Source: a virus
Strand: one strand, 5' to 3'
IMG/VR virus record: IMGVR_UViG_3300045988_060114
DNA: 64,000 bases
Shown here piece after piece: positions 25,066 to 42,628 of the stretch. How positions within the stretch are numbered: the stretch's first letter is position 1; every line of letters starts with the position of its first letter. Made by a program: the position numbers and the translations under genes. The notes under the pieces are model-generated. The model was given only the letters and a program-made list of their open reading frames with translations, ran no database searches and was not told the DNA's origin.

Positions 25066-28000
25066 ATGGCAGAAAGACCATTATACACTTTATACAAGAA
25101 TCTGAAAGCACAGAACTATGATGTGCCTGATGATTACAATAAGTTTGAGAGCGCCCTGACCAGAGAAGGAAAGGGCGGTGCAGATAACAGACACGCTATC
25201 TATGAGAACTTGAAGGCTCAGAACTTTGATGTTCCTGATACTTATGAGCGTTTCTATTCTGCACTTTTTGAACCTCGTAGTAAGACTTCATCTAGAGCGA
25301 AGGGCGGTAGTGTTCCTTTGAGTGCTGCTGACCGTGCTCGTTTCAATGCTAGAACTGCGGAAATCTTGTCTAGTGCTAATAATGCGGTAAGACAAGCAAA
25401 GCGAAACATTCAGACCAAACTGGGGCAAGCAAAGAAGTTTGATGGTGGCAGGGTTACTCAACGTCTAAAGAATCCTTTGCAGAATCAGAATGTACAGAAG
25501 AATGAGTTCAACTATAATGCCACAACTGGCAAGACTGGAACCTATACAACATCTGATGGAGTGGAGTTCGATAACGAGTATGATGCTACCCAGTATCAGA
25601 ATAAGTTGGACGAGCAGGGGCAGCAGTATATCAATGCTGTAAATGCTGGTGAGATACCGTCTGCTTTAGATGTGCGTGACCAGAATGGCAACTACGACTT
25701 GCAGGAGAATATTGGTAAGAATGGAACCTATCTCACTGAGGAGGGTGCTCAAAAGCAGTTTGATAAGAAACTGGCTGATGCCTATGCTCGCAAGAAGGAG
25801 ATAGAAGCTGCTATAGCGGAAGACAATCGTCAGCATGGCAATCCTCTGCTCTCTTATGGTGCTAGTATTGGTTCAAGTAACGGAAGAAATGCTGAGCAGA
25901 GTGACTATAGAAATAAGTTGGCAACCTCTCTATCTCTTGTTACTCAGCAGATTGGTGCGCTTGAAGCGGTGAAACAATACCCTACAAGTAGCTGGGGTGA
26001 GGATGCCTTGAAGGCTCTTGACAATACTGCCTTTACTGCCAAGACTTGGGATTTCGGTCTGACTGATTTTGCTACCATGGGGCAGATGGAACGTATCAAG
26101 ACAAAGATGGATAACAACATTCCTCTCTCTGGTTCTGATAAGATGCTCTTGAAGAGTAAACTGGGTGCGGATGCTGCTGCGGCTCTCGAAGATGAGAAGA
26201 TGGGTAATATCTATCGCTGGACGAAGATTGCAGGGCAGAGTCTCCCATTTATGGCTGACTTCTTCCTGACTGGTGGCTATGGTGGTATTACCAAGGGCAT
26301 CAGTCGTGGAGCCTTGAAGATTGCTGCTAAGTCTGGAATGGGCAAGGTGAGTGCTGCAATTTTGAAGAACACTGGTATCGTGGCTGGCGATGTAATCGGC
26401 TCGTATGCGATGGCTGGAACTGAACAGGCATTGAAGACTGGTGCAGACATCATGCAGCGACATCTAGGTAATCTGTATCAGGATGAGAAGGGCGATTATA
26501 AGTTCGGTACATTTGACGAAAACGGAAACCTCCTGCATGAAGGTGGTGAGTCTATGGGTACTGCTCTCTATAAGGGGCTGACCTCTGCCATGGTGGAGAA
26601 CTACACAGAGAAGTTGTTTGGTCACAACTATGGTATCAAGAAGGGTGCTGTCAACTTCATGGAGAAACATGGTATGAATGCTTCTGCTGAGTTCTTCAAG
26701 AATATCGGCAAGAGTGGTTGGTACACCAATTCTAAGAAGTGGATGGAGAAGTTTGGCATCAATGGTTTCGCTGAGGAAGTGATGGAGGAGGAAATTGGTA
26801 TTCCTCTTCATGCACTGCTGGATGGTGATAGTAAGGTGAGCGACCTTCTTGATGCTAGACAACAACTTGACATTATTGGTGGTATGGCTATCTCTGTTGG
26901 TTCTATGTATGCGATGGGTGCTGGCTCCCGACCAGTGAAGGGTGTGTACAATCGTGCTCAGTACTACCGATTCAGACACAAGTTGAACGTGGCTGATAGT
27001 GATGCACAGAACCTTATTGGCGATAACTGGGCAGACATCAAGGATAAGATTGACAATGCAACCAACGAGCAGATGGGTAGTGTACTAGCTGGCATTCTCC
27101 GTCAGAGAGATACAATGACCAAGGAACAGATTAATGCTGCTGTTAACTATGGTGTGAACCTGATGAAGATGCGTGGCTACAATATTGCCAAGACTTCTGA
27201 AATGAATGCAAGGGAGATTACCAATGAGCCTACAACTCCTGAGGAACAGCATCAAACGGATATTGATAACGCTTACTCTGAGGGGCATGATGCTGATGAT
27301 GCAGACAAACATGATATTCAGATTCAGCAGGAAGACCAGATGAAGACTCTTGCAGCAGCATTGGGTATCTCTGAGCAGCAGCTATCTGTTATGAGTGATG
27401 AGGAGTTGGAATCCTTAACTGGAAAGGATGATAAACTTGACCAAGCTATCTATGACTACCAGTTGTCTTCTGCTCGCTACCAAGGTGTGGTTGATGATGC
27501 ACAAGACAAGGTTGACCTTGCTGCTCATCAGGCAGAACAACGTGTTGATATGTACACAGACCAGAGCCGTGGCTCAGTCCGTAACGCTACCATTAAGGCA
27601 TCTGGAGGACTGGAAGACTATGGTGTCTATATTATCAGTGGCAATATCGCTACTCATGATGATGGTACTATTGATGTAAGCAATAGTGATGATATGATTC
27701 TCTATTATGACCCGACAACGAATAGTGTAGAACACGCTGATGCATTGATGTTCGCTGAACTGGGTGAGGAACTGCCTGCTGATGATGTGAAGGCTCAGGC
27801 GGTAGCTGATGCAAAAGAGGTTGCTATCAAAGAAGTGGCTGGCATCATTGACGGAACAGTTGATGTTGGCTCCCAGTTCTTGGTGACTGATGCTGACGGA
27901 ACGGAACATACTTATGAGGTGCTTGCTGATTATGGTGATGGTACTGCTGCTATTTCTATTGATGGTAATGTGGTAGAGAATCCATATTCGCTTGCCGATT

Positions 28001-31000
28001 TGCAACAGATGAAAGACTTGGAAGACAAGAAGAGATTGGAAACTGCTAAGGCTCAGCGTGAGCAGATAGAGAAGGAACGTGCTGAGCAGCAGAATCAGGA
28101 GACAGAACAGACTCAACCTTCATTTGATTTCAATCAGATTCTTAATGACAATGGAAATGTTGTCATTGTTGATGTGCTGGATAAGGATGGCAATACTAAA
28201 TATCCTGACTCTAGATTGTTCCTTATTCGTGATACTGGTGCCAAGGCTAAGGTAGTTGAGTTGAAGAGTGATGGCACTATTGTTCCTCATGCTGTGAGCA
28301 AGAAGAATGTGAGCATAATTACTTCAATGTCGCTTGATGAGTACAAGCAGGCTATGGCTGAATCCTCAATGATAGAGGATAATAGTGGAGAGAATAGAGG
28401 TGAGATAGAGGTGGAGACTCCGACAATAGAGGGCGAGACTGCTGCTCCTGCTGAGGAGACTGCTGCTCCTGAATCTGCTGAGACTCCTGCAACTGAACAG
28501 ACTCCTGCTGCTCCTTCCATTACTCTTGAAGATGGAACCATCGTGCCTATGCTGGAGGATGGCAATCCTGACTTCACGAAGCTGACTGCCGCACAGACTG
28601 CTGAGTTGTATGACTCCCAGTTTGGTGAGGATGCAGATAGTATCGTATCTGGATATGTGTCTGATGCAAAGAAGGCACTCGACAAGGCTAGCAACATGAC
28701 CGTGAAGGGTAAGACTTTCGTGGAACAGAAGGCTGCAAAGGATGCAAAGGAGAAGGCTATTGCTGATGCTCAGGCGGCTTATGACTCTGCTATCGCTATC
28801 CGTGATGCTTACAATGAGCGACAACTTGCCAAGGTGGAAGATACTGCTGAGGGTAGAAAGGAACTCATTGAGAAGGCAAGAAGAAAGTTTGCTCGCTTGA
28901 AGAGTGCAGTGAAGAATGATGCTGAGGCTGTAGCACAACTATATAAGGAGACTGTAGGCAGCTTGCTACATCGTCTGTATGATGGCACTGGCATTGACGT
29001 GACAGATACGATTCCGCTTACTGCTGAGGAGTATGTGGCTAGTAATCTCGGTGCTCACTCTCTCAACTATGAGGGTACTGAGACAAGCAAAGGTGTTAAG
29101 CAAGAGACTGGATTGAGTAGAGAAGACTTTGCCAAGACCCAGTTGCTCGCTGCTGATGGCAAGGGTACTACTATTGACAACCTCGTACATAGCTTGTGGG
29201 AGAATCGTCCATCTAACCTTGATTCACTCGACACTCAGAATATTCGCAATGCCTTGCTCAGCATAATCACTAGCGGTTTCAAGGCATCGGAAGCAAGAAA
29301 TTACATTGAAAATCTCCGTATCGCTCAGGCTGAGAATATCCTTGAAGAGCAGAAGAAGGCGGCTGATAACGCTGCATTCGCTGAGGAGAAGACTGGGGAA
29401 GAGAACTCTGATGAGGAGAATGATGAGGAGAATGAGAAGATAAATGAGCAGACAAATGAGAATATAAATGCTCCTGAGGTTCCTGAGGATGCAACGGATG
29501 ATACTCCTTTAGGCGCACAGCGTGATGAATCAGACCTTCCTTTCTCTGCTAAGGAGAATGGCAAGCAGCAGACAACTGCCGAGCGTGCTGCTGATGTAGA
29601 GAAGAATAAGGTGGATGATATGAAGGTCGTTGACAATATCGTGGGTGAAAAGACTCGAAAGGCTTTCGAGAGACTGGCTAAGATGATGGGTGCTGCCATT
29701 CAGTGGCAGTACTCTGACAAGTTGGGTAACGGCTGGATTCAGGAGACCAAGGATGCTGATGGCAACGTTCATCGTACCATCTTCATTACTCTTGACTCTT
29801 CTATCACGGAAGGTGCTCAGTTTATCTTCGGTCATGAAATGACTCACCAAATCAAGAATCTGAACCCTGCTGCATACAATGAGTTGACTCAGCTTGTGCT
29901 TGATACCTATGGCTCTGATGCCTTCGACAAGGCGGTAGGTGAGACCATGCAAAGATATTCTGATGCTGGATTCTCTGGACGTGCTAGAGATTACTATGCT
30001 GAGGAGGTTGTTGCTGATGCGGTAGGTGAAATGATTCGTGACCTCAACTTGGCTCATACTCTCGCTATGAAGATGTCTCATCCTCTACTCGCTGCTATCC
30101 ATGAGATATTGCAGAAGATTAAGTTGGCATTCTTTGGCACTGAGTATAGCGATGTGACCAAGAACATCATCCGCTCCATTGAACAAGCCTACGTGAAGAC
30201 TGCCAATGGGGAGGTGACAAACTCCGAGACTGGTGAAGATGTTTCCTTCTCTCTCCGTCAAAAGCCTGAACCTAAGAAGAAGGGCATCGGCTACAAGGTG
30301 TTCGTATTGAAGGATGGCAAACTCTATCCACCTATGGTAGCGAACCCTAATGGTGCTGCTACTCCAGTTGGTGTGTGGCTCGATGCTGATGCGGCTCCTA
30401 TTGCAGGAGAAAGCAAGACTGGAAGACCTCAGGTTAAGCAGGGCGGCAAGGGAACACAAGGCGGTAGCGGTAAGTTAGCCTATAGACCAGGCTGGCATCT
30501 TGGTGTAGTGCCTTATGCTATCCAGTTTAACCGCAAGGATGCTGAGGGCAACAAGACTCTCTTCCCTAAGAACTTTGTCTTCGCTGAGGTGGAGTATGCT
30601 GCTGACGTTGATTATCAGGAGGAAGCTCGCCAAGAGGGTATCAATCCATCGGGCAAGTATCAGCATTCACTCGCTGGCTTGAAACATCTGCCTACTGATG
30701 GTTTCTATATGTATCGTACAAACCCGAACCCTGAGACTGACCCTTGGGTGATTACTGGTGCGATGAAGGTGAACCGTATCTTGACCAGAGCAGAGCAAGC
30801 GGAACTTGTGAAGAATGCTGGTCGTGAACCTCAGCAGATTCAGGAGGGCGATATTGTTACTGATGATGTTGTGAACAGCATCAATCAGGAGATAGCTGAT
30901 GCTCCTAAGTTCTCGTTAAAGGTATATCATGGTAGCGGTGCTGACTTTACAGAGTTTGACTTCGACCACATGGGTGAGGGTGCTGGCTCCCAAGTATTCG

Positions 31001-34000
31001 GTTGGGGTGGCTACGTTACTTCATCGGAAGAGATAGGAAAAAGCTATGCTAATCTTTCAAGAGATTATGGCAGCAGAAACATATATAAGGGCGATATTCC
31101 GTTGACCAAGTTGGAAAAGGCTGCTTTGAGTTCATTCATTGAGAACAACAAGAATCATGAAGGGACATTCAAGGAAGGTGTTGCTGGTTCTATCGAGCGA
31201 CAAAAGGCATTGATTGCTAAGCATCCGAACAATCCTCTTTCTAATAGTATCAAGAAGAGAATTGAAGTATTGGAGGGTGCTATGCCTAAACTGGATAGTA
31301 TCTCTTGGGATGATTTCGTTCCAAGTGGAAAGAACCTCTATGAGGTAGATATTCCTGAGGATAATGGCAGTAACTATCTGGAATGGGAGAAGAAACCATC
31401 TGATGAGGTTGCAACAAAGATAATTGAAGGTCTTTATGGCTTGGATGCTAAGACCCTTGATGATATGGCATCAAAGGATATTGTGTTCAGAACTCTGTTG
31501 TATGATTACATCAAGAATGCAGACAAGGAGCAGATGATTCCACTCCTTGTGAAGACTCATGCTCTAACTAGGGAAACTACCTATGACAATGGAAATGTTG
31601 AGGATGATATACGATTTGTGTACAATCGTTTATCTAGATGGATGGGCAGTCAAAAGGCTGCAAGCCAGTTCCTATCTTCTCTTGGTTTTACTGGCATCAA
31701 GTACCCTGCTGGAACAATCATGGGCGGTGTTGAAGGAGACGAAATCAACTATGTTATCTTCAAACCTGAGGATATGAAGATTACAGAACATACCAAGTTC
31801 TCCATCAAGACCTATCATGGCTCCCAAGCATCATTTGACAAGTTCGACCACTCCTTTATGGGTAGCGGTGAAGGTGCTCAGGCTTACGGCTGGGGTACTT
31901 ATGTGAGCGAAGTGGAAGGTATCGCCAAGGCTTATGCCAAGGCAAATGCAAAAAAGAATGCGCCTTCAAGACTGATGTATCAAGGTAAGCCTATGACGTA
32001 TAAAACTCCATCAATTATCTATCAAGTTGCCCTTGATATGGATAAGTTTAATATTTCCGCAAAAGAGGCTATATCAAAGATGATAGATGCTGATGAGAAG
32101 AAACTTGCATCCGTTGGCGACACCCCATTTGCGAAGATGAAAGCCAAACAAGTTCAAGATGAGTTGAAAGTTTTGAAAGATTTGAATCCTTCTGACTTCA
32201 AGATTAATGAGGACTATGATACTGTCGCACAGGATTTGATAGATACAAAGTCTGGTCTTGATTTATTGGAGGATGAGTTGAAAGATGCAAAATCCTATGT
32301 AGATTTGTACCAATCAAGACTTGATGAGGCTAAGGAAGAACTTTCAAAGGCAAAGGAAAGTGGCACTGGTTTAGGTGTTGATATGTATGAATCTGATGTT
32401 GAGTATTATAGCGAACAGGTTAAAAGATATAAGCAGAGTATAAAAACTAAGGAAAGTGACATCAAAGATGTAAAAACTAAGGTTGACGCTTTGCAGAAGA
32501 AGTTGGATTCCATGGAGAAACCACGCAACCTCTACTCTGTTGATATTCCTGATGATACTGGTCGCAACTACATCGGCTGGGATGAGCCTTTAGGTGCTGC
32601 TAAGATTATGCGTCTGCCAAAGGTATTCAAGGCTGATGGCTGGGAGTACAAGAAGGTTGGTATGTATGATACTTACAAGATTGATGGTAACGAACATGAG
32701 GTTTGGCTTGAACCAACTTTGACTACTGGCAAGGAACTTTATAGAGATTTGACGAATGCCCTAGGTAGCGACAAGGCTGCAAGCGAATTTCTCTCCAAGG
32801 CTGGCTTTGTCGGTGTGAAGGTTATCGCTCAGCGTAATACTGGCGGCAACAAGGAAGGCAAGATGAACTATGTTATCTTTGATGAGAACAATGCTCAGAT
32901 TACCAGTCATACCAAGTTCTCGTTGAAGAAAGATGGCTTGACTCCTGAGATAGCAAATACTCCTGTAAATATTGTTGATGCTGATGAGGAACATGGCTTT
33001 AAGAACTATGCTGAGGCAAGAGAATGGGCTAAGAAGAATATTGTTAGAACTTACAATGATGAAGAAACTGGTGGCAAGGGTGAGATTAATATCAGTAATA
33101 CTGCTGTTGGTAAGTATTTGTCTGAAAAGGCAGTTAAGAAGAGTGCAAACAAAGATGTACACATGAGCGTTTTGAAGGTCTTGCCTTCTATACTTCGTGA
33201 GAGTGTAGATGCTATTCAGCATGTTGACCGTAACAAGGTAGGAAATGAACGTAGTGAGGATTTTGGTGTCAATCCTGATGTTATGATACATCGTTGTTAT
33301 GGTGCGGTGAATATAGGCGATAAGGTCTATGGTGTAAAGATTACTTTGAAAGAGAATGTAAGAACACACGAAAAAACAAAGCTATATAGCTATGAAGCAA
33401 CAAAAATAGAGCTGCTGGACGGTCAAAGTGGAGACGTAGCTATGACCTCTCCCCGCAATTCCAACAACTCTATTACGGTTGCAAAGATAATAAAAGGTTT
33501 TGAAACTACCAAGAAAAATGGCGAAAAGTTTTCATTGAAGGATGAAAAAACTCTTGCAGGAGTGCATAACATTACTGAGGAGAAACTGAGAAAGGCTTTG
33601 AAGCTGGGTGGATTTGCCAATCCTTCTTTGGCTGTGATTGATACCAACAAGACTGCTCACGACAACTTTGGAGAGATTTCCTTCATCGCTCCTTCTGCCC
33701 TTTTGGATAAGCGTACTGGCAATACTGGCGGTACTTGGATAACTGATGCCTACACTCAACGTTATCCTTCCGTAGAGCGAGAAATGAGTGAAAAAGGGTA
33801 TCGGAAGTTTGAAGACTGGGTTGATAGCCTTGATTACCCAAGTGTAGCTAAGGCTGAGATTGAGAGACAGGCAAAGGATGCCCTGAGCGACAATAATGCT
33901 CCTGCTTGGGAGTTGATGTACTTGAAGGAAAAGGGTATTGATATTAAGGAGTATGATTCTAGAATTGATTATCGCTGGAAAGAGATTATCAGTGACCATC

Positions 34001-37000
34001 CTACTGCTGAGGATATTCTGAATAGTATGAAGACTGACCCTGAACTGAATAAAAAGGTTACAAGTCTGGCTAAGCATGCCATCATCCATCCTACTTGGGA
34101 AAAGGTTTCTTTGGAGGTAAGAAGAAAGATGTATAAGGAGACTGGCGTTAAGGCTAGCCCTATCAATCCACAAGTAAGAAAACAGACTAAGGAAATCTTT
34201 GAGCGTGACTATGCGCCAACCTTGCTTAACAAGGACGGCAGTCCAAGAAAAAAAGATGTGAAGAAGGTTGTTGGGGATATTGTGAAGGAGCACAACGATA
34301 CCAAGAAGTATAACTTCTATCTGTCTAAGGTGAAGGCTAGTAATTACGTCAACAAGAATGGTCTTTATGATGATTACATCAGATGGCAGGAGAACAAACT
34401 GGATGAGTTCGGAACGAAGAACCGTATCTTCCGTGGCTATACTAAGGATGGTTCCCGAAAGTATGTGCCTGAGACTCTTGAAAATGTTTCAAAGGCTATG
34501 AGGGAAGAAGCAGATGGGCAGACCAATGGAAGTGAATATACCTCGTTTGGTAGCTTTATCGCAAAGTTGGCTAGTCGTGTTGATTCTACAGACGAAATGC
34601 GTGCCAACAAGGATAAGTTGTCTTCTAATAAGGATAAGGAAGAGTTTTACGAGAAATGGAATGGGGTTTATTATGACCTTGCCAAGTTCTTGTATAATGA
34701 TGTGTTTTATGGCGAGCAGAGACTTCACGATATTGTATTGCAGTCTGACCCTAAGAAGTATGCCAAGAAAGAATATGGCATTACCCTTACTCCTACCTTT
34801 ATGAAGAAACTGGATGCCTTGAAGAATGCAGTACAGACAGAGTTGAAGAGTGCGTACTTTGAGACTAAGTACAACAGACCTCTACGCCTTAATGAGTTTG
34901 CTGCTGCTGTGGTTCCTGATAACTTGGGCGAAGATGTGCGCAAGGGTATAGAGAATGCTGGCTTACCAATGTATGACTACGACCCGAATAAGGAAGGTGA
35001 CCGCAGTCGTGCCTTCAATGAAGCTATAAATAGCAGCGACAATATCCGATTCTCTCTTGCTGGCGAGCGTGGTGCGGCTGCTGCTGACAAGGCAGAGGAG
35101 CGTACTGCTCGTATGGATAATCTCTCTGTGGCTCGCAAGATGGAAGAGGAGAAGAAGGATGCCAAGGCAATCAAGATGGCTACTGGTTGGGAGCGTGGTG
35201 CTGATGGCAAGTGGAGATACGAAATGCCTGATGCCAAGATAAAGGACACGATGGACGTAGGCGGTGGGCACATCGTTAAGCGTTACGAGGATGATATGCT
35301 CTGGAATGGTGGTAAACTATCTAATGTGATTGATGCACCTGAATTATTTAAGGCTTATCCCCAGTTGAAAGATGTGCGTATTGATACGGATGCCATTATG
35401 AACGATATGCCTTCAAATGGTGAATATAATTCAAAGACCAACACCATTACCATTCATGCTGATGAGTTGAAATATATGAATGGCATATTGAATCACGAGA
35501 TTCAGCACGTTATTCAGGATATTGAAGGCTTTGCCAAGGGCGGTAGTCCTAGATTGGTTAGAGGTGAGGTCAAGAAGAGGTTTGATGAGGTCACCAAACA
35601 GATTAAGCAGCTACGTGCAGAAGGTAAGGAAGATGAAGCAAAGACTCTGATTGAGAAGAACAGAGGTCTTTATAATGCTTATCAGAAGAATGATGATTTC
35701 AATAGTTACAAGTCTCTTGCTGGCGAGGTGGAAGCTCGTAACGTATCTGCCCGATTGAACATGACTCCTGAGGAGAGAAGAAAGACTCTCGCTGAATCTA
35801 CTGAGGACGTGGCTCGTAAAGACCAGATTTTCTTGGGCGTGGGCGATGTGTCCTTCTCTCTACGTGATATGGCTGACGGAAAGGAGAGTGGGGCGGCTGA
35901 TATGGCTGAGGATTTGAAGAGTCTGAACACTCCTGATGAGGTGGATGATGCTATCAAGACTGCCATTGATGATATGCCGAGCGGTTGGCAGATGGCTAAC
36001 AAGAAGATGATTCATATTGCTCAGGCTCTGGGCGAGAACCGCAAGGCAGAGATTTCTGGCGAGGAACCTAAGTTCTCCCTGAAGGCTGGCACTCTCATTA
36101 AGGCTGGAACCTACTTTAGTGGTGGCGGTCTTGTTGAGGAAGGCTTGAAGGGTATCATCGACCCAGTGGTGGCAGTGGAGTATGACGAGAAGATAAGCGG
36201 TGTATATCGCAACAACTTCGGGCAGCACATTGTTACTGCTGATGTTCGTGATGTAGACCCTAAGGAGTTGGTGAAGCAGATAGATGGTGAGGTGGAGTAC
36301 TTCCATGCCAGCCCAGTCTGCAAGAACTACTCTCAGGCAAAGAGTAACCACGCAGAGGTGGAACTTGACAAGGAGACTGCTGCTAGTACTGCCGAGTTTA
36401 TCAATGCCGTTAAGCCAAAGGTGGTGACTATTGAGAACGTGAAGGGGTATAAGGATTCGGAAGCGATGAAGACTATTACCGATGCTCTGGATGCCAACGG
36501 CTATACTTGGGATGCAGATGTGTATAACGCTGCTGACTATGGCGGCTACACAAACCGAGAGAGATTGATTGTCCGTGCGGTTCGTGATGGCAAACTTCCT
36601 GCCAAGCCAAAGAAGATGGCACGCAAGAGTGGATGGTATGAAGCTGTGGCTGATATTATCCCGACCCTGACCGAGAAGAAGAATGGCGTGGCTCCTTGGA
36701 TGGATATTCGCTTGAAGGCTGATGGCATTGACTGGAGAAACATTGACAAGCCATTATATGTGATGGGTAGTGCCTATGCTGACGGAAAGATTCCTCATGC
36801 CTTCGCTGACGAACTGCTGCCAACACTCCGAACCAAGAGCGGTGATGTAATTGTGATGCCTGATGGTAAGGTATATCGTGCCATGGGCAGAGTGCTCGCT
36901 AGAGTATCAGGAGTGAGCGATGATTACAAGATGCCATTCTCCGAGAATCTGAGCCATACCATCATCGGCAACGGAATACCTACCCAGTTGACCGAGCATG

Positions 37001-40000
37001 TTATTGCTCCTCTGCTTACTGGCTCTGACCCTAAGTTTAGCATCCGTACCTATCATGGTACTGGTGCTAGCTTCGACAAGTTCGATTTTAGCCACATGGG
37101 TGAAGGCGAAGGTTCACAAGCATTTGGCTGGGGTGGTTATGTTACTAACTCTAAGGAAATTGCTGAGGACTACACAAGACGTGCCAAAATGAGAAAAAAT
37201 AATGGCGGCTTTGAATTTGTGACAGATTTGTCTGACAGCAACAAAGATATGGTAAGACACTATATCTATAAATATAAAGATGTAGATAAGGGATTGGATG
37301 CTATGAGAAAAGACCTTTCTTCTGCTCTAGAAATGTTCCCTGATGATGATAATTTGAAGGAACTTAGCGATATTCTTGCAAAGAAGAATGAGGAAATAGC
37401 TGTTCCTGATGATATTGCTTATCTTTACGATGTGGATATTCCTGATGATAATGGAGATTATCTTGACTGGGAGAATAAATTGAAAAAATCTCATTTGAAC
37501 AAGGTAAATAAGGAGTTGGTTAGAATTGGCAAGGAACCTATTGAGGCCATTTATCCAAGTCGTGTTGATGGTAAGGTAAGAGGTCAAGACCTATACGATG
37601 AACTTTCCTCTATGCTTGGTTCTAAAGAAGCAGCTAGTAAGTTGTTAAGTGATGCTGGCTTTGTTGGTATTAAATACCCTGCTGGAACCATCTTTGGAGG
37701 TGCAAAGAAAGATGATTACAACTACGTGATATTCGATGAGAACAATGCCAATATCGTGGGTAATACCAGATTCTCCTTGCGCTATGACCAGTTTGAGCAT
37801 GACCTGAACCAGTGGAAGAAGGATAACAACCTGCCAAAGGATGCACAGCGACCAACCATCCCACAACGCAACGCTGGTGAGAGTGCCGTTGACTTCCTGA
37901 AGAGAGTGGACGAGTATCGCAAACAGATGGCTCTGTGGAAGACTGCTCCAACCTACGAGCAGCATCTTTTGAGTGATGATACTGCCCTTGGAGAGTTTAA
38001 CCGAGAGTTGCAGCGTGGTTCTGTACTCAAACGTATCGCCTTCCAAGATAGTATGCTGGCTATCCGCAAGGCTCAGGAAGCTATCATGAAGGAAGTGGGT
38101 GTTGACCGCCTGAATATGGCTGAGGATGCCTATACTGCCGAGAACAGAAGTCACGGCAAAGGAAAGAACGAGTTTGAGGAGTACAACAATGAGTTCTTGC
38201 AGCCATTGAGAAAGGCTTATCATCAGATGAAGAAGATACTGGGTGACAGCTATGATAATGTCCGTATCTACATGATGGCTAAGCATGGCTTGGAGCGTGA
38301 TGCTCAGATGGCTTTCAAGAAGTCACTGGATGCAGACTTTGAGGACGTGGCTCAGAGAAGTGCGGCATACAGGGCTTACAAGGGCGATATGAACCGTATT
38401 ACCAATGATAGCGATTTGGAGTTTGGCAGAGTGGATTTCAATACTTGGAGACAGAGAGATAACGCACTTAGAACGAAATACTCTCCTTCCTATATGGACT
38501 ATCGCTATGATGAGAATGGTATCGCCTACGATTACTCAGGCTTATCGGCTCTCTTCGGTGGCTCAGACTTTGAGGAAGCTGCCCACAAACTGGTAAGGGA
38601 TATTGAGAGTAGTCATGTAGCTGAGGTGCAAGACCTCTGGAATGCTACGAATGCGGCTACAAAGAAGATTCTCCGTGATGGCTATAAGGCTGGCATGATG
38701 AGCAAAGATACTTATCTGTATGTGCGTGATATGTATAGCCATTATATTCCTCTCCGTGGATGGGATGGCACTACTGCCGACCAAGTATGGGACTATGTAG
38801 GTGGTGGCAAGGGTGCGTTCAATCAGACATTGAAGACCGCACACGGACGTACCTCTATAGCTGATGACCCTATCGCTTACATCGAGAATATGGCAGAGAG
38901 TGGAATCCTGCTGAACAACAAGAACTGGGTGAAGCAACACCTGATGCTCTTGGCTCAGAATCATCCAACCTCTCTTCTCACCCTGAGCAAGGCTTGGTAC
39001 GTGAAGAGTACGGATGCCAACGGCAACGAGGAGTGGATTCCTGCTACACCTCAGATTACTTCTCAGATGAATAGCAATCAGGTGAAGGCTACCATTGATG
39101 CTTTCGAGCAGAAGATGGAGAATATGGCTCAGACTGGCGATGCTACCCAGCAGCGAGAAGGCTTGAACATAGCCTATCCTCAGACTCATAGCGAGGAGAG
39201 AGAACATGAGGTAAGAGTGATGAAGGATGGCGAGGAGTATGTTATCTATGTGAATGGTGACCCGCAGTTGGCTCAGGCGATGAACAATACTAGAGCACAC
39301 CGAGTGAGAGAGATTCAGAGCGGCAAACTGGATAGGGCTGCTGCTTGGTTGGGCAGAAAGATGGCTGCTGCCTATACCAGTCTTTCACCTCTCTTCATTC
39401 CTTCCAACTACTTCCGAGACCTGACCATGACGCTGGCATCTACCGCTATTCGTGAGGATGGCAGATACAACTATCTGCTAAGAAAGAATCTTGCTACCTC
39501 TTGGAATCTCGGTTTCATGCTGAGAGACTATCAGAACGGCAAGTTGAGAGATAAGGTAAACAACGGAAACGCTACTCCAAAGGAACAGATGTTCTATGAC
39601 TTCATGATGAATGGTGGCGAAACTGGCTTTGTCTCTTCGCTTGATGTGGAAGACTTGAAGAAGAAATTCAAGAATGACTTGAAGGATTTGGATAGATGGA
39701 AGGCGAACCCAGTAAAGGTAGGGCACACCATCATGGATAGTATCGAGTTCCTGAACAGAATGATTGAGGATAGTAACCGATTTGCGGTTTACATGACCTC
39801 TATTCAGTATGGACGTTCTATTGATGAGGCTGTGAATGATGCCAAGGACGTAACATTGAACTTCAACCGCAAGGGTACTGGCGAATATGGCTGGCAGATG
39901 ATTAGAAACCTCTATCTCTTCATCAACCCAGCAGTACAGAGTTTACAGACATTGGGTGCGCTTGCCAAACATCATCCGTTCAAGTTCACGGCTGTTACTG

Positions 40001-41361
40001 CATCGTGGTTGGCGAGTGGTGTGCTGGTTCCTATCGTCAACGCTGCCCTGATGAGTCTGTTGGGCGGTGATGATGATAAGGATAAGTACTGGCAGTTCAC
40101 CAAGTGGGATAGACGAAACAACCTGATTATGTGGGTTCCGTTTACTCATGAGTATGTGAAGATTCCGCTTGCTCAGGAGTTCCGTGCCTTCTATGGAGTA
40201 GGCGATATGATTGCATCCAAGATGATGGGTGGAGAGTTGGCTGAGGAAAGTTGGAGCCAGTATGCAGAAGACTTGCTCGGTCAGGTGGTGGATATGCTTC
40301 CGCTCGACCCTACTGGCTATGATGGCAATATTGCGGTCAGTCTGATGCCGAATGCTATTCGCCCAGTTTTTGAGTTGGCTTTCAATGTTGACTTCACTGG
40401 CAAGCCATTATTCAAGGAGACAGAGTATAACAAGTATGACCCGAACTTTACCAAGGCATACGTGGGCACTCCTGATTGGTTGGTACGTGCATCCAAGATG
40501 GTTAACTCAATCGGAAACGACTATCCTGATGTGCAGCAGAATAGCATTGATGCTTTCGGTGACCCAAGGTACAATCTGAATAACCCTGCCGTGGTTGACC
40601 ATGTATTGTCTTCTTACCTCGGTGGTGCTTACACCATGGGCAGTCAGGTGCTCGGTTTGCTTACCAAGTCACTCAATGACCGGAAGGAAATCAAGGTGGC
40701 TGATATTCCATTGGTAAGCAAGTTTGTCAGCAACCCTGATGATAGACCAGTCAGCAAAAAGCAGGGAGATGAGTTCTGGGATAAGAAGGAATACTACGAC
40801 CGTGCTTCCAACACAATTAGCAAGTTGAAGAAACAAGCTAAGATTGATGGAGATTATTCCCAGCTTGAACGTTTCTATGGCTCTGAGGAATACAAGACTT
40901 ACAAGTTGTATGAGAAAGATGTAAAAGATTACAAGGAGGCAAGAAAAAAGGAACGTGCTGAGGAGAGCGGTGATGAGTACAGACCACACCAACTTAATGC
41001 TGAGGACATCTATAATAATCATGCTACCCCTATGGATGAGTTTGAGGATATGAAACTGAAACAACTCTTTGAAAAGTTAAACTCATTTAAGACTAGATAT
41101 GATGCTATTGTAGATAATGCCCCAAATGAGAGCGATGGCTACTACAACACCAACAAGACAGCCATTGATGCCATTGACGAGATTTCCCTTGATAAGCAGG
41201 AGATTTCCGAATTGAAGAAAGGTTTCTTGGATGATGGTAAGGATGCCTACAACGCTGAGGACATGAAGCAGATTCGTGACCTGAGAAAGAAGATTCTTGC
41301 CGTGCTGGAGAAGGCTAACAAGGTGGTTGTGGCTAACCAGAAGGCGAAGACTGATAAGTAA
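25066..41361 (+). CDS. giant multidomain polyvalent protein (5,431 aa)
   Basis: Single uninterrupted 16,296-nt ORF. HEMTH at 29833-29847 and HEIQH at 35494-35508. C5-MTase motifs at 36115-37020. Three paralogous YHG[ST] modules. Hydrophobic helices near 39979-40068. Followed by a strong terminator. Confidence 0.9.
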   Translation: MAERPLYTLYKNLKAQNYDVPDDYNKFESALTREGKGGADNRHAIYENLKAQNFDVPDTYERFYSALFEPRSKTSSRAKGGSVPLSAADRARFNARTAEILSSANNAVRQAKRNIQTKLGQAKKFDGGRVTQRLKNPLQNQNVQKNEFNYNATTGKTGTYTTSDGVEFDNEYDATQYQNKLDEQGQQYINAVNAGEIPSALDVRDQNGNYDLQENIGKNGTYLTEEGAQKQFDKKLADAYARKKEIEAAIAEDNRQHGNPLLSYGASIGSSNGRNAEQSDYRNKLATSLSLVTQQIGALEAVKQYPTSSWGEDALKALDNTAFTAKTWDFGLTDFATMGQMERIKTKMDNNIPLSGSDKMLLKSKLGADAAAALEDEKMGNIYRWTKIAGQSLPFMADFFLTGGYGGITKGISRGALKIAAKSGMGKVSAAILKNTGIVAGDVIGSYAMAGTEQALKTGADIMQRHLGNLYQDEKGDYKFGTFDENGNLLHEGGESMGTALYKGLTSAMVENYTEKLFGHNYGIKKGAVNFMEKHGMNASAEFFKNIGKSGWYTNSKKWMEKFGINGFAEEVMEEEIGIPLHALLDGDSKVSDLLDARQQLDIIGGMAISVGSMYAMGAGSRPVKGVYNRAQYYRFRHKLNVADSDAQNLIGDNWADIKDKIDNATNEQMGSVLAGILRQRDTMTKEQINAAVNYGVNLMKMRGYNIAKTSEMNAREITNEPTTPEEQHQTDIDNAYSEGHDADDADKHDIQIQQEDQMKTLAAALGISEQQLSVMSDEELESLTGKDDKLDQAIYDYQLSSARYQGVVDDAQDKVDLAAHQAEQRVDMYTDQSRGSVRNATIKASGGLEDYGVYIISGNIATHDDGTIDVSNSDDMILYYDPTTNSVEHADALMFAELGEELPADDVKAQAVADAKEVAIKEVAGIIDGTVDVGSQFLVTDADGTEHTYEVLADYGDGTAAISIDGNVVENPYSLADLQQMKDLEDKKRLETAKAQREQIEKERAEQQNQETEQTQPSFDFNQILNDNGNVVIVDVLDKDGNTKYPDSRLFLIRDTGAKAKVVELKSDGTIVPHAVSKKNVSIITSMSLDEYKQAMAESSMIEDNSGENRGEIEVETPTIEGETAAPAEETAAPESAETPATEQTPAAPSITLEDGTIVPMLEDGNPDFTKLTAAQTAELYDSQFGEDADSIVSGYVSDAKKALDKASNMTVKGKTFVEQKAAKDAKEKAIADAQAAYDSAIAIRDAYNERQLAKVEDTAEGRKELIEKARRKFARLKSAVKNDAEAVAQLYKETVGSLLHRLYDGTGIDVTDTIPLTAEEYVASNLGAHSLNYEGTETSKGVKQETGLSREDFAKTQLLAADGKGTTIDNLVHSLWENRPSNLDSLDTQNIRNALLSIITSGFKASEARNYIENLRIAQAENILEEQKKAADNAAFAEEKTGEENSDEENDEENEKINEQTNENINAPEVPEDATDDTPLGAQRDESDLPFSAKENGKQQTTAERAADVEKNKVDDMKVVDNIVGEKTRKAFERLAKMMGAAIQWQYSDKLGNGWIQETKDADGNVHRTIFITLDSSITEGAQFIFGHEMTHQIKNLNPAAYNELTQLVLDTYGSDAFDKAVGETMQRYSDAGFSGRARDYYAEEVVADAVGEMIRDLNLAHTLAMKMSHPLLAAIHEILQKIKLAFFGTEYSDVTKNIIRSIEQAYVKTANGEVTNSETGEDVSFSLRQKPEPKKKGIGYKVFVLKDGKLYPPMVANPNGAATPVGVWLDADAAPIAGESKTGRPQVKQGGKGTQGGSGKLAYRPGWHLGVVPYAIQFNRKDAEGNKTLFPKNFVFAEVEYAADVDYQEEARQEGINPSGKYQHSLAGLKHLPTDGFYMYRTNPNPETDPWVITGAMKVNRILTRAEQAELVKNAGREPQQIQEGDIVTDDVVNSINQEIADAPKFSLKVYHGSGADFTEFDFDHMGEGAGSQVFGWGGYVTSSEEIGKSYANLSRDYGSRNIYKGDIPLTKLEKAALSSFIENNKNHEGTFKEGVAGSIERQKALIAKHPNNPLSNSIKKRIEVLEGAMPKLDSISWDDFVPSGKNLYEVDIPEDNGSNYLEWEKKPSDEVATKIIEGLYGLDAKTLDDMASKDIVFRTLLYDYIKNADKEQMIPLLVKTHALTRETTYDNGNVEDDIRFVYNRLSRWMGSQKAASQFLSSLGFTGIKYPAGTIMGGVEGDEINYVIFKPEDMKITEHTKFSIKTYHGSQASFDKFDHSFMGSGEGAQAYGWGTYVSEVEGIAKAYAKANAKKNAPSRLMYQGKPMTYKTPSIIYQVALDMDKFNISAKEAISKMIDADEKKLASVGDTPFAKMKAKQVQDELKVLKDLNPSDFKINEDYDTVAQDLIDTKSGLDLLEDELKDAKSYVDLYQSRLDEAKEELSKAKESGTGLGVDMYESDVEYYSEQVKRYKQSIKTKESDIKDVKTKVDALQKKLDSMEKPRNLYSVDIPDDTGRNYIGWDEPLGAAKIMRLPKVFKADGWEYKKVGMYDTYKIDGNEHEVWLEPTLTTGKELYRDLTNALGSDKAASEFLSKAGFVGVKVIAQRNTGGNKEGKMNYVIFDENNAQITSHTKFSLKKDGLTPEIANTPVNIVDADEEHGFKNYAEAREWAKKNIVRTYNDEETGGKGEINISNTAVGKYLSEKAVKKSANKDVHMSVLKVLPSILRESVDAIQHVDRNKVGNERSEDFGVNPDVMIHRCYGAVNIGDKVYGVKITLKENVRTHEKTKLYSYEATKIELLDGQSGDVAMTSPRNSNNSITVAKIIKGFETTKKNGEKFSLKDEKTLAGVHNITEEKLRKALKLGGFANPSLAVIDTNKTAHDNFGEISFIAPSALLDKRTGNTGGTWITDAYTQRYPSVEREMSEKGYRKFEDWVDSLDYPSVAKAEIERQAKDALSDNNAPAWELMYLKEKGIDIKEYDSRIDYRWKEIISDHPTAEDILNSMKTDPELNKKVTSLAKHAIIHPTWEKVSLEVRRKMYKETGVKASPINPQVRKQTKEIFERDYAPTLLNKDGSPRKKDVKKVVGDIVKEHNDTKKYNFYLSKVKASNYVNKNGLYDDYIRWQENKLDEFGTKNRIFRGYTKDGSRKYVPETLENVSKAMREEADGQTNGSEYTSFGSFIAKLASRVDSTDEMRANKDKLSSNKDKEEFYEKWNGVYYDLAKFLYNDVFYGEQRLHDIVLQSDPKKYAKKEYGITLTPTFMKKLDALKNAVQTELKSAYFETKYNRPLRLNEFAAAVVPDNLGEDVRKGIENAGLPMYDYDPNKEGDRSRAFNEAINSSDNIRFSLAGERGAAAADKAEERTARMDNLSVARKMEEEKKDAKAIKMATGWERGADGKWRYEMPDAKIKDTMDVGGGHIVKRYEDDMLWNGGKLSNVIDAPELFKAYPQLKDVRIDTDAIMNDMPSNGEYNSKTNTITIHADELKYMNGILNHEIQHVIQDIEGFAKGGSPRLVRGEVKKRFDEVTKQIKQLRAEGKEDEAKTLIEKNRGLYNAYQKNDDFNSYKSLAGEVEARNVSARLNMTPEERRKTLAESTEDVARKDQIFLGVGDVSFSLRDMADGKESGAADMAEDLKSLNTPDEVDDAIKTAIDDMPSGWQMANKKMIHIAQALGENRKAEISGEEPKFSLKAGTLIKAGTYFSGGGLVEEGLKGIIDPVVAVEYDEKISGVYRNNFGQHIVTADVRDVDPKELVKQIDGEVEYFHASPVCKNYSQAKSNHAEVELDKETAASTAEFINAVKPKVVTIENVKGYKDSEAMKTITDALDANGYTWDADVYNAADYGGYTNRERLIVRAVRDGKLPAKPKKMARKSGWYEAVADIIPTLTEKKNGVAPWMDIRLKADGIDWRNIDKPLYVMGSAYADGKIPHAFADELLPTLRTKSGDVIVMPDGKVYRAMGRVLARVSGVSDDYKMPFSENLSHTIIGNGIPTQLTEHVIAPLLTGSDPKFSIRTYHGTGASFDKFDFSHMGEGEGSQAFGWGGYVTNSKEIAEDYTRRAKMRKNNGGFEFVTDLSDSNKDMVRHYIYKYKDVDKGLDAMRKDLSSALEMFPDDDNLKELSDILAKKNEEIAVPDDIAYLYDVDIPDDNGDYLDWENKLKKSHLNKVNKELVRIGKEPIEAIYPSRVDGKVRGQDLYDELSSMLGSKEAASKLLSDAGFVGIKYPAGTIFGGAKKDDYNYVIFDENNANIVGNTRFSLRYDQFEHDLNQWKKDNNLPKDAQRPTIPQRNAGESAVDFLKRVDEYRKQMALWKTAPTYEQHLLSDDTALGEFNRELQRGSVLKRIAFQDSMLAIRKAQEAIMKEVGVDRLNMAEDAYTAENRSHGKGKNEFEEYNNEFLQPLRKAYHQMKKILGDSYDNVRIYMMAKHGLERDAQMAFKKSLDADFEDVAQRSAAYRAYKGDMNRITNDSDLEFGRVDFNTWRQRDNALRTKYSPSYMDYRYDENGIAYDYSGLSALFGGSDFEEAAHKLVRDIESSHVAEVQDLWNATNAATKKILRDGYKAGMMSKDTYLYVRDMYSHYIPLRGWDGTTADQVWDYVGGGKGAFNQTLKTAHGRTSIADDPIAYIENMAESGILLNNKNWVKQHLMLLAQNHPTSLLTLSKAWYVKSTDANGNEEWIPATPQITSQMNSNQVKATIDAFEQKMENMAQTGDATQQREGLNIAYPQTHSEEREHEVRVMKDGEEYVIYVNGDPQLAQAMNNTRAHRVREIQSGKLDRAAAWLGRKMAAAYTSLSPLFIPSNYFRDLTMTLASTAIREDGRYNYLLRKNLATSWNLGFMLRDYQNGKLRDKVNNGNATPKEQMFYDFMMNGGETGFVSSLDVEDLKKKFKNDLKDLDRWKANPVKVGHTIMDSIEFLNRMIEDSNRFAVYMTSIQYGRSIDEAVNDAKDVTLNFNRKGTGEYGWQMIRNLYLFINPAVQSLQTLGALAKHHPFKFTAVTASWLASGVLVPIVNAALMSLLGGDDDKDKYWQFTKWDRRNNLIMWVPFTHEYVKIPLAQEFRAFYGVGDMIASKMMGGELAEESWSQYAEDLLGQVVDMLPLDPTGYDGNIAVSLMPNAIRPVFELAFNVDFTGKPLFKETEYNKYDPNFTKAYVGTPDWLVRASKMVNSIGNDYPDVQQNSIDAFGDPRYNLNNPAVVDHVLSSYLGGAYTMGSQVLGLLTKSLNDRKEIKVADIPLVSKFVSNPDDRPVSKKQGDEFWDKKEYYDRASNTISKLKKQAKIDGDYSQLERFYGSEEYKTYKLYEKDVKDYKEARKKERAEESGDEYRPHQLNAEDIYNNHATPMDEFEDMKLKQLFEKLNSFKTRYDAIVDNAPNESDGYYNTNKTAIDAIDEISLDKQEISELKKGFLDDGKDAYNAEDMKQIRDLRKKILAVLEKANKVVVANQKAKTDK
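29554..30246 (+). other. domain of giant ORF: zincin-like metallopeptidase module 1
   Basis: ITEGAQFIFGHEMTHQIKNL (HExxH), bracketed by FSAK (29542) and FSLR (30247). Confidence 0.6.
30907..31794 (+). other. domain of giant ORF: HGS module copy 1 (weak ART-like signature)
   Basis: KFSLKVYHGSGADFTEFDFDHMGEGAGSQVFGWGGYV ... LYEVDIPEDNGSNYLEWE ... GFTGIKYPAG ... INYVIF. Confidence 0.5.
31795..32913 (+). other. domain of giant ORF: HGS module copy 2 (with a coiled-coil insertion)
   Basis: KFSIKTYHGSQASFDKFDHSFMGSGEGAQAYGWGTYV ... LYSVDIPDDTGRNYIGWD ... GFVGVKV ... MNYVIF. Confidence 0.5.
35062..35853 (+). other. domain of giant ORF: zincin-like module 2
   Basis: ATGWERGADGKWRYEMPD ... NGILNHEIQHVIQDIEGFAKGG ... 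LAGEVEARNV, bracketed by FSLA (35050) and FSLR (35854). Confidence 0.55.
36085..37032 (+). other. domain of giant ORF: C5-cytosine DNA methyltransferase
   Basis: YFSGGGL (motif I), HASPVCKNYS (motif IV variant, P-V-C), TIENVKG (VI), TNRERLIV (VIII), IIGNGIP (X). Confidence 0.75.
37033..37767 (+). other. domain of giant ORF: HGT module copy 3
   Basis: KFSIRTYHGTGASFDKFDFSHMGEGEGSQAFGWGGYV ... LYDVDIPDDNGDYLDWE ... GFVGIKYPAG ... YNYVIF. Confidence 0.5.
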
Positions 41362-41373
41362 TATATATATGAC

Positions 41374-41415
41374 TATCCCCTGAAAGTGTTAGGCTTTCGG
41401 GGGATATTTACTTTC
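41374..41415 (+). terminator. rho-independent terminator after the giant ORF
   Basis: TATCCCCTGAAAG-N7-CTTTCGGGGGATA (13 bp with one G-U) followed by TTTACTTTC. Confidence 0.65.
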
Positions 41416-42563: not shown

Positions 42564-42628
42564 TGCTCGTAACGTTACAAAGTGAGAATCATAATTTAGT
42601 GTTTAACAAAAAAAGATTTCAGGATAAT

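Follow-up and report, generated by a model that had tools for sequence, protein, structure and literature searches.

Exchangeable enzyme cassettes, bounded by a five-residue joint, form the middle of a giant phage polyvalent protein

Introduction

Is a viral reading frame of 5,431 codons a real gene, and if so, how is its product put together and what would it do? The question is raised by a stretch of 64,000 nucleotides from IMG/VR virus record IMGVR_UViG_3300045988_060114 (here called the window, meaning the whole stretch that was analyzed), in which a single gene, the giant gene, occupies positions 25066 to 41361. A reading made from the letters alone, before any database search (the sequence-only reading), had described the product as a chain of enzyme modules that matches the concept of phage polyvalent proteins. 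Such proteins are predicted to be the first weapons fired into the cell, and their break-up into working enzymes has only been predicted since 2017. We report here that the giant gene consists of two constant ends and a central array of nine cassettes, which related phages exchange exactly at a five-residue joint. Judged by its profile matches, the product is an LPD38-type phage polyvalent protein, and it is very probably packaged or ejected. The best explanation as a whole, to which we assign a probability of about 0.6, is a packaged effector-delivery polyprotein with plug-in cassettes.

Results

Translation of the window re-found one uninterrupted open reading frame (ORF) on the plus strand (Table 1). 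The landmarks named in the sequence-only reading were all in place: the motifs HEMTH, HEIQH and S-P-V-C (the last at 36310-36321), the hydrophobic helix, IPLRGW, and, after the ORF, a terminator-like hairpin with a T tail. A megablast search of the ORF against phage and plasmid collections gave no match. Could the frame nevertheless have arisen by chimeric assembly or by concatenation of repeated modules, or could the gene be a pseudogene in decay? Short-read assemblies often break within the gene, leaving fragments of ≤2,090 amino acids; the gene contains paralogous ADP-ribosyltransferase (ART) cassettes; and one copy in a cultured strain is truncated. However, when N- and C-terminal loci were paired per contig, complete and uninterrupted orthologues were recovered on 45 independent IMG/VR contigs (3,738 to 5,624 amino acids; median, 5,253), sharing the start MAERPLYTLYKN and the end. 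The frame was open across 10 kb upstream in about 75 of 83 loci. The protein-database products, all of ≤2,090 amino acids, proved to be fragments cut at contig ends and N gaps and were rejected as evidence of real stops. Full-length representatives of 4,000 to 7,236 amino acids are abundant, cultured Bacteroides phage genomes encode homologues of 5,391 and 5,553 amino acids, and the catalytic motifs of the methyltransferase described below are invariant in 68 distinct sequences. We conclude that an assembly artifact is excluded for the giant ORF and that this whole class of explanation is effectively refuted.

Each cassette, and also the constant C-terminal part (the chassis), opens with the sequence [KR]-F-S-[LI]-[KR], which we call the joint. 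The pattern FS[LI][KRA] occurs 10 times in the protein, against 0.28 copies expected and a maximum of 3 in 2,000 shuffles, and the joint ranked first in an unbiased k-mer scan. Position -1, which was not in the search pattern, is K or R in 128 of 135 junction types. The joints bound exactly the modules that profiles define, so that nine cassettes lie between the constant ends: a beta-rich module (module 3), three ARTs, an LPD3 cassette, a PBECR5 cassette, an LPD23/HEIQH cassette, a mini-cassette and a C5-cytosine methyltransferase. The motif is in no other real ORF of the window, and on this ground a capsid-maturation protease site common to other virion proteins was rejected as the nature of the joint.

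Cutting 80 related proteins at the joint yielded 48 clusters of very tight lengths, about 30 of them recurrent. Several families are absent from the window, namely, InPase, LPD13, PBECR1, MuF_C, further types of ART, LPD3 and PBECR5, and several unknowns. Among 46 complete genes we counted 45 different cassette orders, and the constant parts of these genes are 82 to 93% (N-terminal) and 89 to 99% (C-terminal) identical to those of the window. Where the downstream cassettes of two genes differ, identity falls from 0.73 to 0.79 at positions +2/+3 to 0.27 at +4 and to about 0.2 beyond; where the upstream cassettes differ, it rises from about 0.3 to 0.5 to 0.84 to 1.0 at positions -1/0. Related phages are thus directly observed to exchange cassettes exactly at the joints, and there is hardly any doubt that the gene is organized as a constant chassis with swappable cassettes.

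The joint belongs to a clade. With chassis identity of ≥62%, 10 of 11 representatives have 4 to 10 strict joints, and the eleventh has one strict and five generalized joints. Joints fade at 53 to 58% chassis identity and disappear at ≤40%; none occur in the Bacteroides phage giants or in Bcep22 gp75. The idea that all LPD38 proteins have the joint was therefore rejected; only the prefix of module 3 is widespread, and hundreds of proteins across several bacterial orders have it in joint-like forms (IRFSIRT, VRYRIRE, GSIRTKK). At the boundary before the chassis a degenerate joint persists further (R/FSLRY, [KR]/YSLRV, R/FSLNY and DNELR/YILWRSY, with the slash at the boundary). In distant relatives nothing separates the HEMTH-type module from the chassis, and the array therefore looks inserted in this clade. 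Another sequence, [IV]RFRE, occurs three times in BF1-TP2 gp68 (amino acids 1548, 1754 and 2480), once at the equivalent of a window joint. Since it recurs in giants, with one copy aligning to a window joint, other clades may use punctuation of their own. The same sequence is also found at amino acid 3817 of the Parabacteroides distasonis giant. We found no paper describing the joint, and no interdomain consensus or cleavage motif in Iyer et al. (PMC5512222). In this Prevotella-phage clade the cassettes form a regularly punctuated array that is shuffled combinatorially and, as far as we found, is undescribed.

Domain content was taken from Pfam and PHROG scans of protein tiles, with Pfam matches listed to an E value of ≤0.1. 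The polyvalent reading holds because polyvalent-protein families (LPD14, ART-PolyVal, LPD3, PBECR5, LPD23 and LPD38) and a C5-cytosine methyltransferase match the protein; sister cassettes matched the InPase, LPD13, PBECR1 and MuF_C profiles too. The tiled scans supported the methyltransferase and the HGS/HGT modules of the sequence-only reading, and its two zincin modules stay unverified: neither the HEMTH nor the HEIQH module matched any Pfam peptidase profile. About half of the protein had been left unnamed. Much of it can be named: amino acids 542 to 624 are LPD14, 1728 to 1948 are the PHROG 30118 module (module 3), 2649 to 2968 are LPD3 plus PBECR5, and 4236 to 5431 are the LPD38 chassis.

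Module 3 is present in 42 of the 46 complete genes. It has 407 homologues without a recorded Pfam family for the domain, and most of the listed matches are 52 to 81% identical, with source names including Bacteroidales, Muribaculaceae, Oscillospiraceae and Eubacteriales. Short proteins of about 310 to 350 amino acids contain it, and elsewhere it is fused to MuF_C, DUF4406 or GNAT. AlphaFold models it confidently (predicted local distance difference test [pLDDT] score, 85 to 95), and a Foldseek search of the model of module 3 plus ART1 against the PDB gave no match (best E value, 0.14). The three modules picked out by their HGS or HGT motifs are real and are identified by Pfam and alignment as ART-PolyVal ADP-ribosyltransferases. 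The third aligns with the first two, and the His (YHG[ST]) and Tyr (G.G.YV) motifs are kept in all three. Iyer et al. (PMC5512222) placed ART-PolyVal in the H-Y-D clade, Tox-ART-HYD2. The PBECR5 cassette comprises a predicted BECR-fold RNase and about 360 amino acids without assignment, and it is 34% identical to amino acids 1753 to 2286 of BF1-TP2 gp68. The region around HEIQH is weakly similar to the HEMTH module (hhalign E value, 0.0026; probability, 11%).

The methyltransferase domain is complete (amino acids 3684 to 3980), as the sequence-only reading had it. When each half of the protein and profiles of the constant ends were searched against PDB sequences, only this domain was matched, by M.HhaI and M.HaeIII. 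Motifs I (FSGGGL), VI (IENVKG), VIII (TNRERL) and X (GNGIP) are canonical, and motif IV reads S-P-V-C-K instead of the canonical P-C-Q, with the Cys retained; these five motifs are invariant in 68 distinct cassette sequences. The cassette is in 45 of the 46 complete genes, and in sister genes the mini-cassette or a shorter variant of 32 amino acids nearly always precedes it. The whole giant protein has only two Cys residues, C2744 in the LPD3 cassette and the catalytic C3752 of the methyltransferase. The window also has a stand-alone C5-cytosine methyltransferase gene (8673-9467, minus strand; 264 amino acids) with a canonical S-P-C-Q motif IV. Its product stops soon past motif VIII, without a target-recognition domain or motifs IX and X, and may be truncated or split; it has only the ENV-to-RxR region in common with the cassette enzyme (41% identity over 64 amino acids).

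The near-constant presence of a DNA methyltransferase cassette would fit a protein whose single relevant job is that of DarB, i.e., methylating or protecting incoming DNA against restriction, and GenBank entries for BKO1-TP3 gp55, Bcep22 gp75 and JC1 gp69 are indeed annotated "DarB-like antirestriction." However, none of LPD36, an N6-adenine methyltransferase or an SF2 helicase was detected in the giant protein, the methyltransferase that is present is a C5-cytosine enzyme, and ARTs, RNase-like modules and unknown modules make up the bulk of the cargo. We consider the DarB-type explanation improbable.

At the N terminus, the duplication noted by the sequence-only reading is real but shorter than the 40 amino acids given (amino acids 6 to 31 versus 44 to 69, with 14 of 25 residues identical), and it recurs in the BF1-TP2 and P. 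distasonis proteins. The PT/E-rich linkers resolve into one PT/E-rich segment and one acidic, low-complexity segment (Table 1). LPD14 matches the giant protein itself weakly; of 18 relatives, 15 have the domain, at E values down to 5.9e-14. Amino acids 242 to 1287 are common to the Bacteroides phage giants (24 to 26% identity), and Gly-rich hydrophobic stretches lie at amino acids 390 to 470 and 601 to 621. The HEMTH module resembles the segment found immediately before the LPD38 region of distant relatives (hhalign probability, 77%; E value, 2.1e-5; 113 columns). Its identification as MuF_C was rejected (hhalign probability of 0.3% against true MuF_C cassettes).

The chassis matches PHROG 14770 over amino acids 4326 to 5299 (E value, 2e-142), and the Pfam LPD38 model spans about 190 of some 1,000 conserved terminal residues. 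AlphaFold predicts it to be mostly helical (pLDDT, 74.7; predicted template modeling [TM] score, 0.60), and by its hydrophobicity profile it has one strongly hydrophobic helix. A Foldseek search of this model against the PDB gave no match (best E value, 0.7). In BFVD, Foldseek matches reached an E value of 2.8e-47 and TM scores of up to 0.6 to 0.74, to terminal chunks of phage polyvalent proteins, including those of a Ralstonia phage and PTXU04 (E value, 5e-20), which bear other cargo (lytic transglycosylase, RelA/SpoT, type I methylase). By tblastn, a 1,192-amino-acid query was covered over 47 to 80% in Bacteroides, Stx-converting, Vibrio, Ralstonia and Burkholderia phages. A search with the last 1,196 amino acids returned 5,315 representative clusters, 1,396 of them at an E value of ≤1e-30. 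The chassis match is C-terminal in the best 150 of the 5,315; the best 145 reach 7,236 amino acids (median, 4,328), and 25 of them exceed 5,431. The sequence-only reading had suspected that both the size and the domain order might be undescribed. The size is ordinary for the family, since relatives reach 7,236 amino acids and the homologue of the cultured phage BKO1-TP3 has 5,553; the exact domain order is one of at least 45 among sister phages.

The window encodes an anti-repressor (Ant), a repressor-like protein, an integrase, TerL, a portal protein, a RecE-like exonuclease and an SU10-type capsid protein. By this gene content the element is a temperate tailed phage, probably podovirus-like, as far as morphology can be read from genes. 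Close relatives are on more than 200 IMG/VR contigs, and relatives in genomes point to human-gut Prevotella/Segatella as the host. Because related IMG/VR contigs are about 65 to 68.5 kb long, the window appears to be most of a circularly permuted or excised genome.

Two genes directly precede the giant gene, as the sequence-only reading had found, but the first is more than the Q/K-rich coiled coil it was taken for. Its product matches Pfam PF24072 (T7_gp14) over residues 4 to 174 (E value, 2e-6; 28.3 bits, with a cutoff of 27), is 53% identical to BKO1-TP3 gp57, and is related to the products of genes preceding the giant ORFs of BS-TP4, BF1-TP2 and a P. distasonis prophage. The second product, of 389 amino acids, gave no Pfam or PHROG match and is homologous to BKO1-TP3 gp56 and BS-TP4 gp2 (E value, about 6e-15), which are encoded directly 5′ of the giant ORFs there. 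The trio is kept in four Bacteroidales phages or prophages (BKO1-TP3, BS-TP4, BF1-TP2 and the P. distasonis prophage). On this homology, the gp14-like protein, the 389-amino-acid protein and the giant form a conserved three-gene internal-virion module, with the giant as its large member.

A very long protein with two largely helical ends and Gly-rich hydrophobic stretches, encoded among morphogenesis genes, could also be a structural tail or tape-measure-like protein, or a late cytoplasmic antidefense protein that is not packaged. Against this, a tape measure of 5,431 amino acids would imply a tail of about 0.8 µm, relatives are found inside the virions of short-tailed phages (phi24B and the Bcep22 group), the upstream neighbor codes for an internal protein of the T7 gp14 type, the capsid protein is of SU10 type, and we noticed no sheath or tape-measure gene among the window ORFs scanned. 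This explanation is very improbable.

TABLE 1 Coordinates of the giant gene, its parts and adjacent features in the window
Feature	Position	Strand	Comment
T7-gp14-like internal virion protein gene (222 amino acids)	23194..23862	+	First of three-gene module; N-terminal Gly-zipper/transmembrane-like segment
Gene for Q/K-rich protein of 389 amino acids	23866..25035	+	Second of three-gene module
Giant polyvalent protein gene	25066..41361	+	Single frame, 5,431 codons plus stop
Constant N-terminal part (amino acids 1-1727)	25066..30246	+	82-93% identity across 45 sister genes
Duplicated 25-amino-acid unit	25081-25158 and 25195-25272	+	Amino acids 6-31 versus 44-69, 14/25 identical
LPD14	26689-26937	+	Amino acids 542-624; weak match in the giant protein itself
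PT/E-rich linker	28414-28518	+	Amino acids 1117-1151
Acidic stretch	29386-29502	+	Amino acids 1441-1479, low complexity
HEMTH module (amino acids 1500-1727; HEMTH at 29833-29847)	29563..30246	+	Last constant module ahead of joint 1
Joint 1 (SFSLR)	30244..30258	+	First of ten
Joints 2-5	30907-30921, 31795-31809, 32914-32928, 33526-33540	+	
Joints 6-10	35047-35061, 35851-35865, 36070-36084, 37033-37047, 37768-37782	+	
Module 3 cassette, beta-rich (amino acids 1728-1948)	30247..30909	+	PHROG 30118, E value 7.6e-34, amino acids 1743-1917
ART1 (amino acids 1949-2244) and ART2 (2245-2617, coiled-coil insert)	30910..32916	+	PF18760, E value 2.6e-12, two stretches
LPD3 cassette (amino acids 2618-2821)	32917..33528	+	PF18798, E value 3.6e-13, amino acids 2649-2767
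PBECR5 cassette (amino acids 2822-3328)	33529..35049	+	PF18814, E value 2.9e-19, amino acids 2826-2968
LPD23 and HEIQH cassette (amino acids 3329-3596; HEIQH at 35494-35508)	35050..35853	+	PF18838, E value 2.2e-12, amino acids 3339-3392
Mini-cassette of 73 amino acids (3597-3669)	35854..36072	+	Clusters 5/7, nearly always directly 5′ of cluster 2
C5-cytosine methyltransferase cassette (amino acids 3670-3990)	36073..37035	+	PF00145, E value 8.7e-31
Third ART-PolyVal cassette (amino acids 3991-4235)	37036..37770	+	PF18760, E value 7.9e-5, N-terminal part, match from amino acid 3994
Constant C-terminal chassis (amino acids 4236-5431)	37771..41358	+	Mostly alpha-helical; K/E-rich helical tail
IPLRGW	38746-38763	+	Inside chassis
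Transmembrane-like helix	39979-40068	+	Kyte-Doolittle peak 1.89 at amino acids 4982-5000
Pfam LPD38 core	40081-40716	+	PF18857, E value 1.1e-23, amino acids 5006-5217
Intrinsic-terminator-like hairpin, T tail	41374..41406	+	Just past stop codon, 14-bp stem

Several other features of the element are recorded here. The integrase gene (18882-20135, minus strand) is in mid-window, inside a low-GC stretch (16000-22000; 0.36 to 0.41), and a tRNA-Met (CAT) is at 14542-14619 (minus strand), in the early/regulatory region. About 1.2 kb 3′ of the giant gene, 42563-43576 (plus strand) encodes 337 amino acids that match PHROG 16490 (unknown function), with a Gly/Trp/Phe-rich N-terminal stretch (GGWFMWVIFLFFLMGWGGNGWGGFGNNGRGG) and a CCC motif. 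A leucine-rich-repeat protein (47172-48182, minus strand; 336 amino acids) and a protein of 1,027 amino acids with a weak CotH-kinase match (48206-51289, minus strand) are encoded next to a tail-fibre-like gene (51310-52470). Their versions on a near-identical contig (L005) have 383 and 1,055 amino acids, and the pair is a candidate for a variable module of host recognition. The chromosome of the cultured isolate Segatella copri HDE04 (NZ_CP152346.1; locus L091, 572-10600) carries the giant gene in truncated form. The copy encodes 3,342 amino acids from the same start, has seven joints, and stops 200 amino acids into the chassis; a 1,340-amino-acid ORF without Pfam matches spans the truncation point on the opposite strand. 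This copy is probably a decayed or interrupted prophage.

Discussion

By analogy with its homologues, the giant protein would be packaged in the capsid together with the gp14-like and 389-amino-acid proteins and would be ejected along with the DNA. Its constant ends would serve for capsid incorporation, as a trans-envelope conduit, or for both. The cassettes would act inside the cell at the very start of infection: the ARTs would modify host proteins, PBECR would cut RNA, and the C5-cytosine methyltransferase would methylate DNA against restriction. The joints would be exposed linkers that keep the cassettes interchangeable, and enzymes might be released by cutting between [KR] and F, with a protease of the constant part or one of the host or phage. 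If this is true, a uniform joint makes any cassette plug-compatible, and nearly every phage of the clade would carry a different anti-host toolkit.

That the joints are putative proteolytic sites, cut between K/R and F, is a tentative proposal that we put at somewhat below an even chance. Similarly tentative is the fuller version, in which the joints are dedicated processing sites and a 600-kDa precursor, packaged by its constant ends, would yield about ten free enzymes when it is cut, whether inside the capsid or once ejected. The joints appear to be conserved as peptide: the wobble bases vary, and K or R at -1 and +3 is kept through nonsynonymous alternatives (AAG, CGT, CGA and others), a sign that selection acts on the peptide. 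The flanks of the joints are hydrophilic, and in an AlphaFold model of amino acids 1700 to 2260 (pLDDT, 73) all three joints are in segments with a pLDDT of <50 between confident domains.

A number of observations weigh against a delivered polyprotein that is cut into active enzymes. A TCN codon specifies the joint Ser in 132 of 135 junction types (P = 7.5e-41 against usage across the gene), and TTC and TTG are likewise in excess. This codon bias indicates that the joints have a common ancestry, and they may act as DNA microhomology. In the ART cassettes the joint runs straight into the first beta-strand (FSLKVYHGS). Module 3 retains the joint-like GSIRTKK at the N terminus of other proteins, where cleavage is needless. 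The HEMTH module has no peptidase profile match, its distant homologues read HEAVAH rather than HExxH, and the giant protein has no verified protease domain. In a MAFFT alignment, the position of D in a full-length ART-PolyVal sister cassette is occupied by N in each of the three ARTs; to judge from such residues, the catalytic competence of the ARTs (N for D) and of the methyltransferase (P-V-C) is not assured. In Foldseek searches of the PDB with the models of the chassis and of module 3 plus ART1, nothing resembled T7 gp15/gp16 or any ejection protein of solved structure. Finally, N4 vRNAP, ArdC and TraC1 are delivered unprocessed (PMC5512222).

Several of these points are what would be expected if the protein stayed an unprocessed "beads-on-a-string" polypeptide and the joint were an inherited boundary segment or a DNA microhomology (AAG TTC TCN TTG AAG) used for exchange. 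The boundary would then have spread with cassette duplication, or cassettes would be exchanged by, e.g., a RecE-like system, such as the exonuclease that this phage encodes, with the joint kept as a neutral flexible boundary. However, 15 nucleotides with variable wobble bases are very short for homologous recombination, and the nonsynonymous codons at -1 and +3 are not accounted for. A mere flexible linker needs no five conserved residues of such character, and the motif is retained in chassis relatives down to about 62% identity. We regard the unprocessed alternative as rather unlikely.

This clade makes the question of processing directly testable, with a five-residue joint at every module boundary. 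If the joints are cleavage sites, a cleavage code would be defined for polyvalent proteins for the first time, and the giant would be a natural plug-and-play scaffold that could be adapted for delivering chosen proteins with phage DNA. The clade is also a natural library, in which a single constant scaffold bears at least 45 combinations of cassettes and which can tie cassette content to host defense repertoires in the dominant gut genus Prevotella/Segatella. For annotation, three points follow: "DarB-like" is a misnomer for the giant and its homologues, the LPD38 model is short relative to the conserved terminal region, and the very widespread 220-amino-acid module PHROG 30118 is without a Pfam family.

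Comparison with known systems

The three-gene module recalls T7 gp14, gp15 and gp16: three consecutive genes encode proteins of increasing size, the first matches the gp14 family, and the third, the largest of them, has a membrane-type helix. In T7 gp16, the only enzymatic domain known is the transglycosylase. Unlike in T7, the 389-amino-acid protein and the giant have no Pfam, PDB-sequence or Foldseek-PDB match to gp15 or gp16.

P1 DarB is likewise large and contains a DNA methyltransferase; it is packaged in the head and acts on incoming DNA, and the label "DarB-like" given to homologues of the giant goes back to it. DarB is built on LPD36, an N6-adenine methyltransferase of EcoKI/TaqI type and an SF2 helicase, and the Pfam tile scans found none of these in the giant. 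In addition, P1 is a myovirus whose packaging uses another system (DarA, Hdf and others). Because the features that define DarB were tested and are not those of the giant, the term "DarB-like" does not apply to it.

In the MARTX toxins of Vibrio, a cysteine protease domain cleaves between effectors. Like the giant, these toxins are of about 5,000 amino acids, with conserved ends thought to translocate central modular effectors; they autoprocess to release the effectors, and repertoires vary between strains (PMC5218395, PMC4453568). They differ in being bacterial, secreted and aimed at eukaryotic cells, with ends made of repeat regions and a defined cysteine protease domain, whereas no protease was identified in the giant. 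The likeness is an analogy of logic, with no relationship in sequence or fold.

The polyvalent proteins of Iyer et al. (PMC5512222), like the giant, have many effector domains per phage polypeptide, drawn from the same domain vocabulary. They are defined by 2 to 15 effector or enzymatic domains and by phage genes near packaging or structural genes, and the giant gene has both features, with three ARTs, PBECR5, LPD3, LPD23, LPD14, LPD38 and DNA_methylase. Mosaicism is likewise known among polyvalent orthologues, with up to 50 combinations for the jhp1044 type of Helicobacter prophages (PMC5512222). Polyvalent proteins were predicted to be packaged, delivered and processed into separate units, with no site given (PMC5512222). 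The giant differs in having a C5-cytosine enzyme, where the methyltransferases of polyvalent proteins were described as mostly adenine-N6 (PMC5512222), and in the regular punctuation of its cassettes.

Giants with LPD38 are known from podoviruses: Bcep22 gp75 (4,602 amino acids), JC1 gp69 (4,515), phi24B gp47 (2,811) and PTXU04_00025 (2,198). JC1 gp69, which has LPD38 and LPD3, was the second-best-scoring protein in CsCl-purified virions, with 51 peptides (PMC9144972). phi24B gp47 is abundant in virions, is invisible in the cryo-electron microscopy reconstruction, and was proposed to be an ejection protein (10.64898/2026.04.10.717836), and PTXU04_00025 is needed for efficient infection (10.1101/2023.09.18.558157). 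As in the window, a single huge ORF in the morphogenesis region carries LPD38, with mixed enzymatic cargo upstream of it; LPD3 is shared with JC1 gp69. Bcep22 gp75, a close homologue of JC1 gp69, aligns with the chassis at an E value of 6e-27 and is directly followed by an annotated terminator, as is the giant gene. Unlike the giant, the Bcep22 group carries a lytic transglycosylase and an N6-methyltransferase/helicase dyad, and phi24B carries LPD5, LPD1 and MuF-C. Bcep22 gp75 has no punctuating joint, these giants share no N-terminal part with ours, and their hosts are Proteobacteria.

Further counterparts are the giants of cultured Bacteroidales temperate phages: BKO1-TP3 gp55 (5,553 amino acids), BS-TP4 gp3 (5,391), BF1-TP2 gp68 (3,633) and that of the P. 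distasonis prophage (4,970). The paper reporting isolation of the Bacteroides phages does not discuss the giant ORFs; it describes a diversity-generating retroelement in BS-TP4 that targets an ORF of about 2,640 amino acids (gp14). A reverse transcriptase gene is beside an ORF of this size in both BKO1-TP3 (locus L001, 39649-41139) and BS-TP4 (locus L002, 35987-37477), and none was noticed among the window ORFs scanned. Like the window, these Bacteroidales genomes have the three-gene module, often an integrase nearby, and a giant of similar size. The segment corresponding to amino acids 242 to 1287 is common to BKO1-TP3 gp55 and BS-TP4 gp3, and the chassis is common to all four, at 31 to 33% identity. 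Unlike the window, they have unrelated middles, except for one PBECR5 cassette in BF1-TP2, and lack the FS[LI][KR] joint. Set among these systems, the giant is large but not exceptional within a vast family of polyvalent proteins, and in its clade the cassettes are punctuated by a joint.

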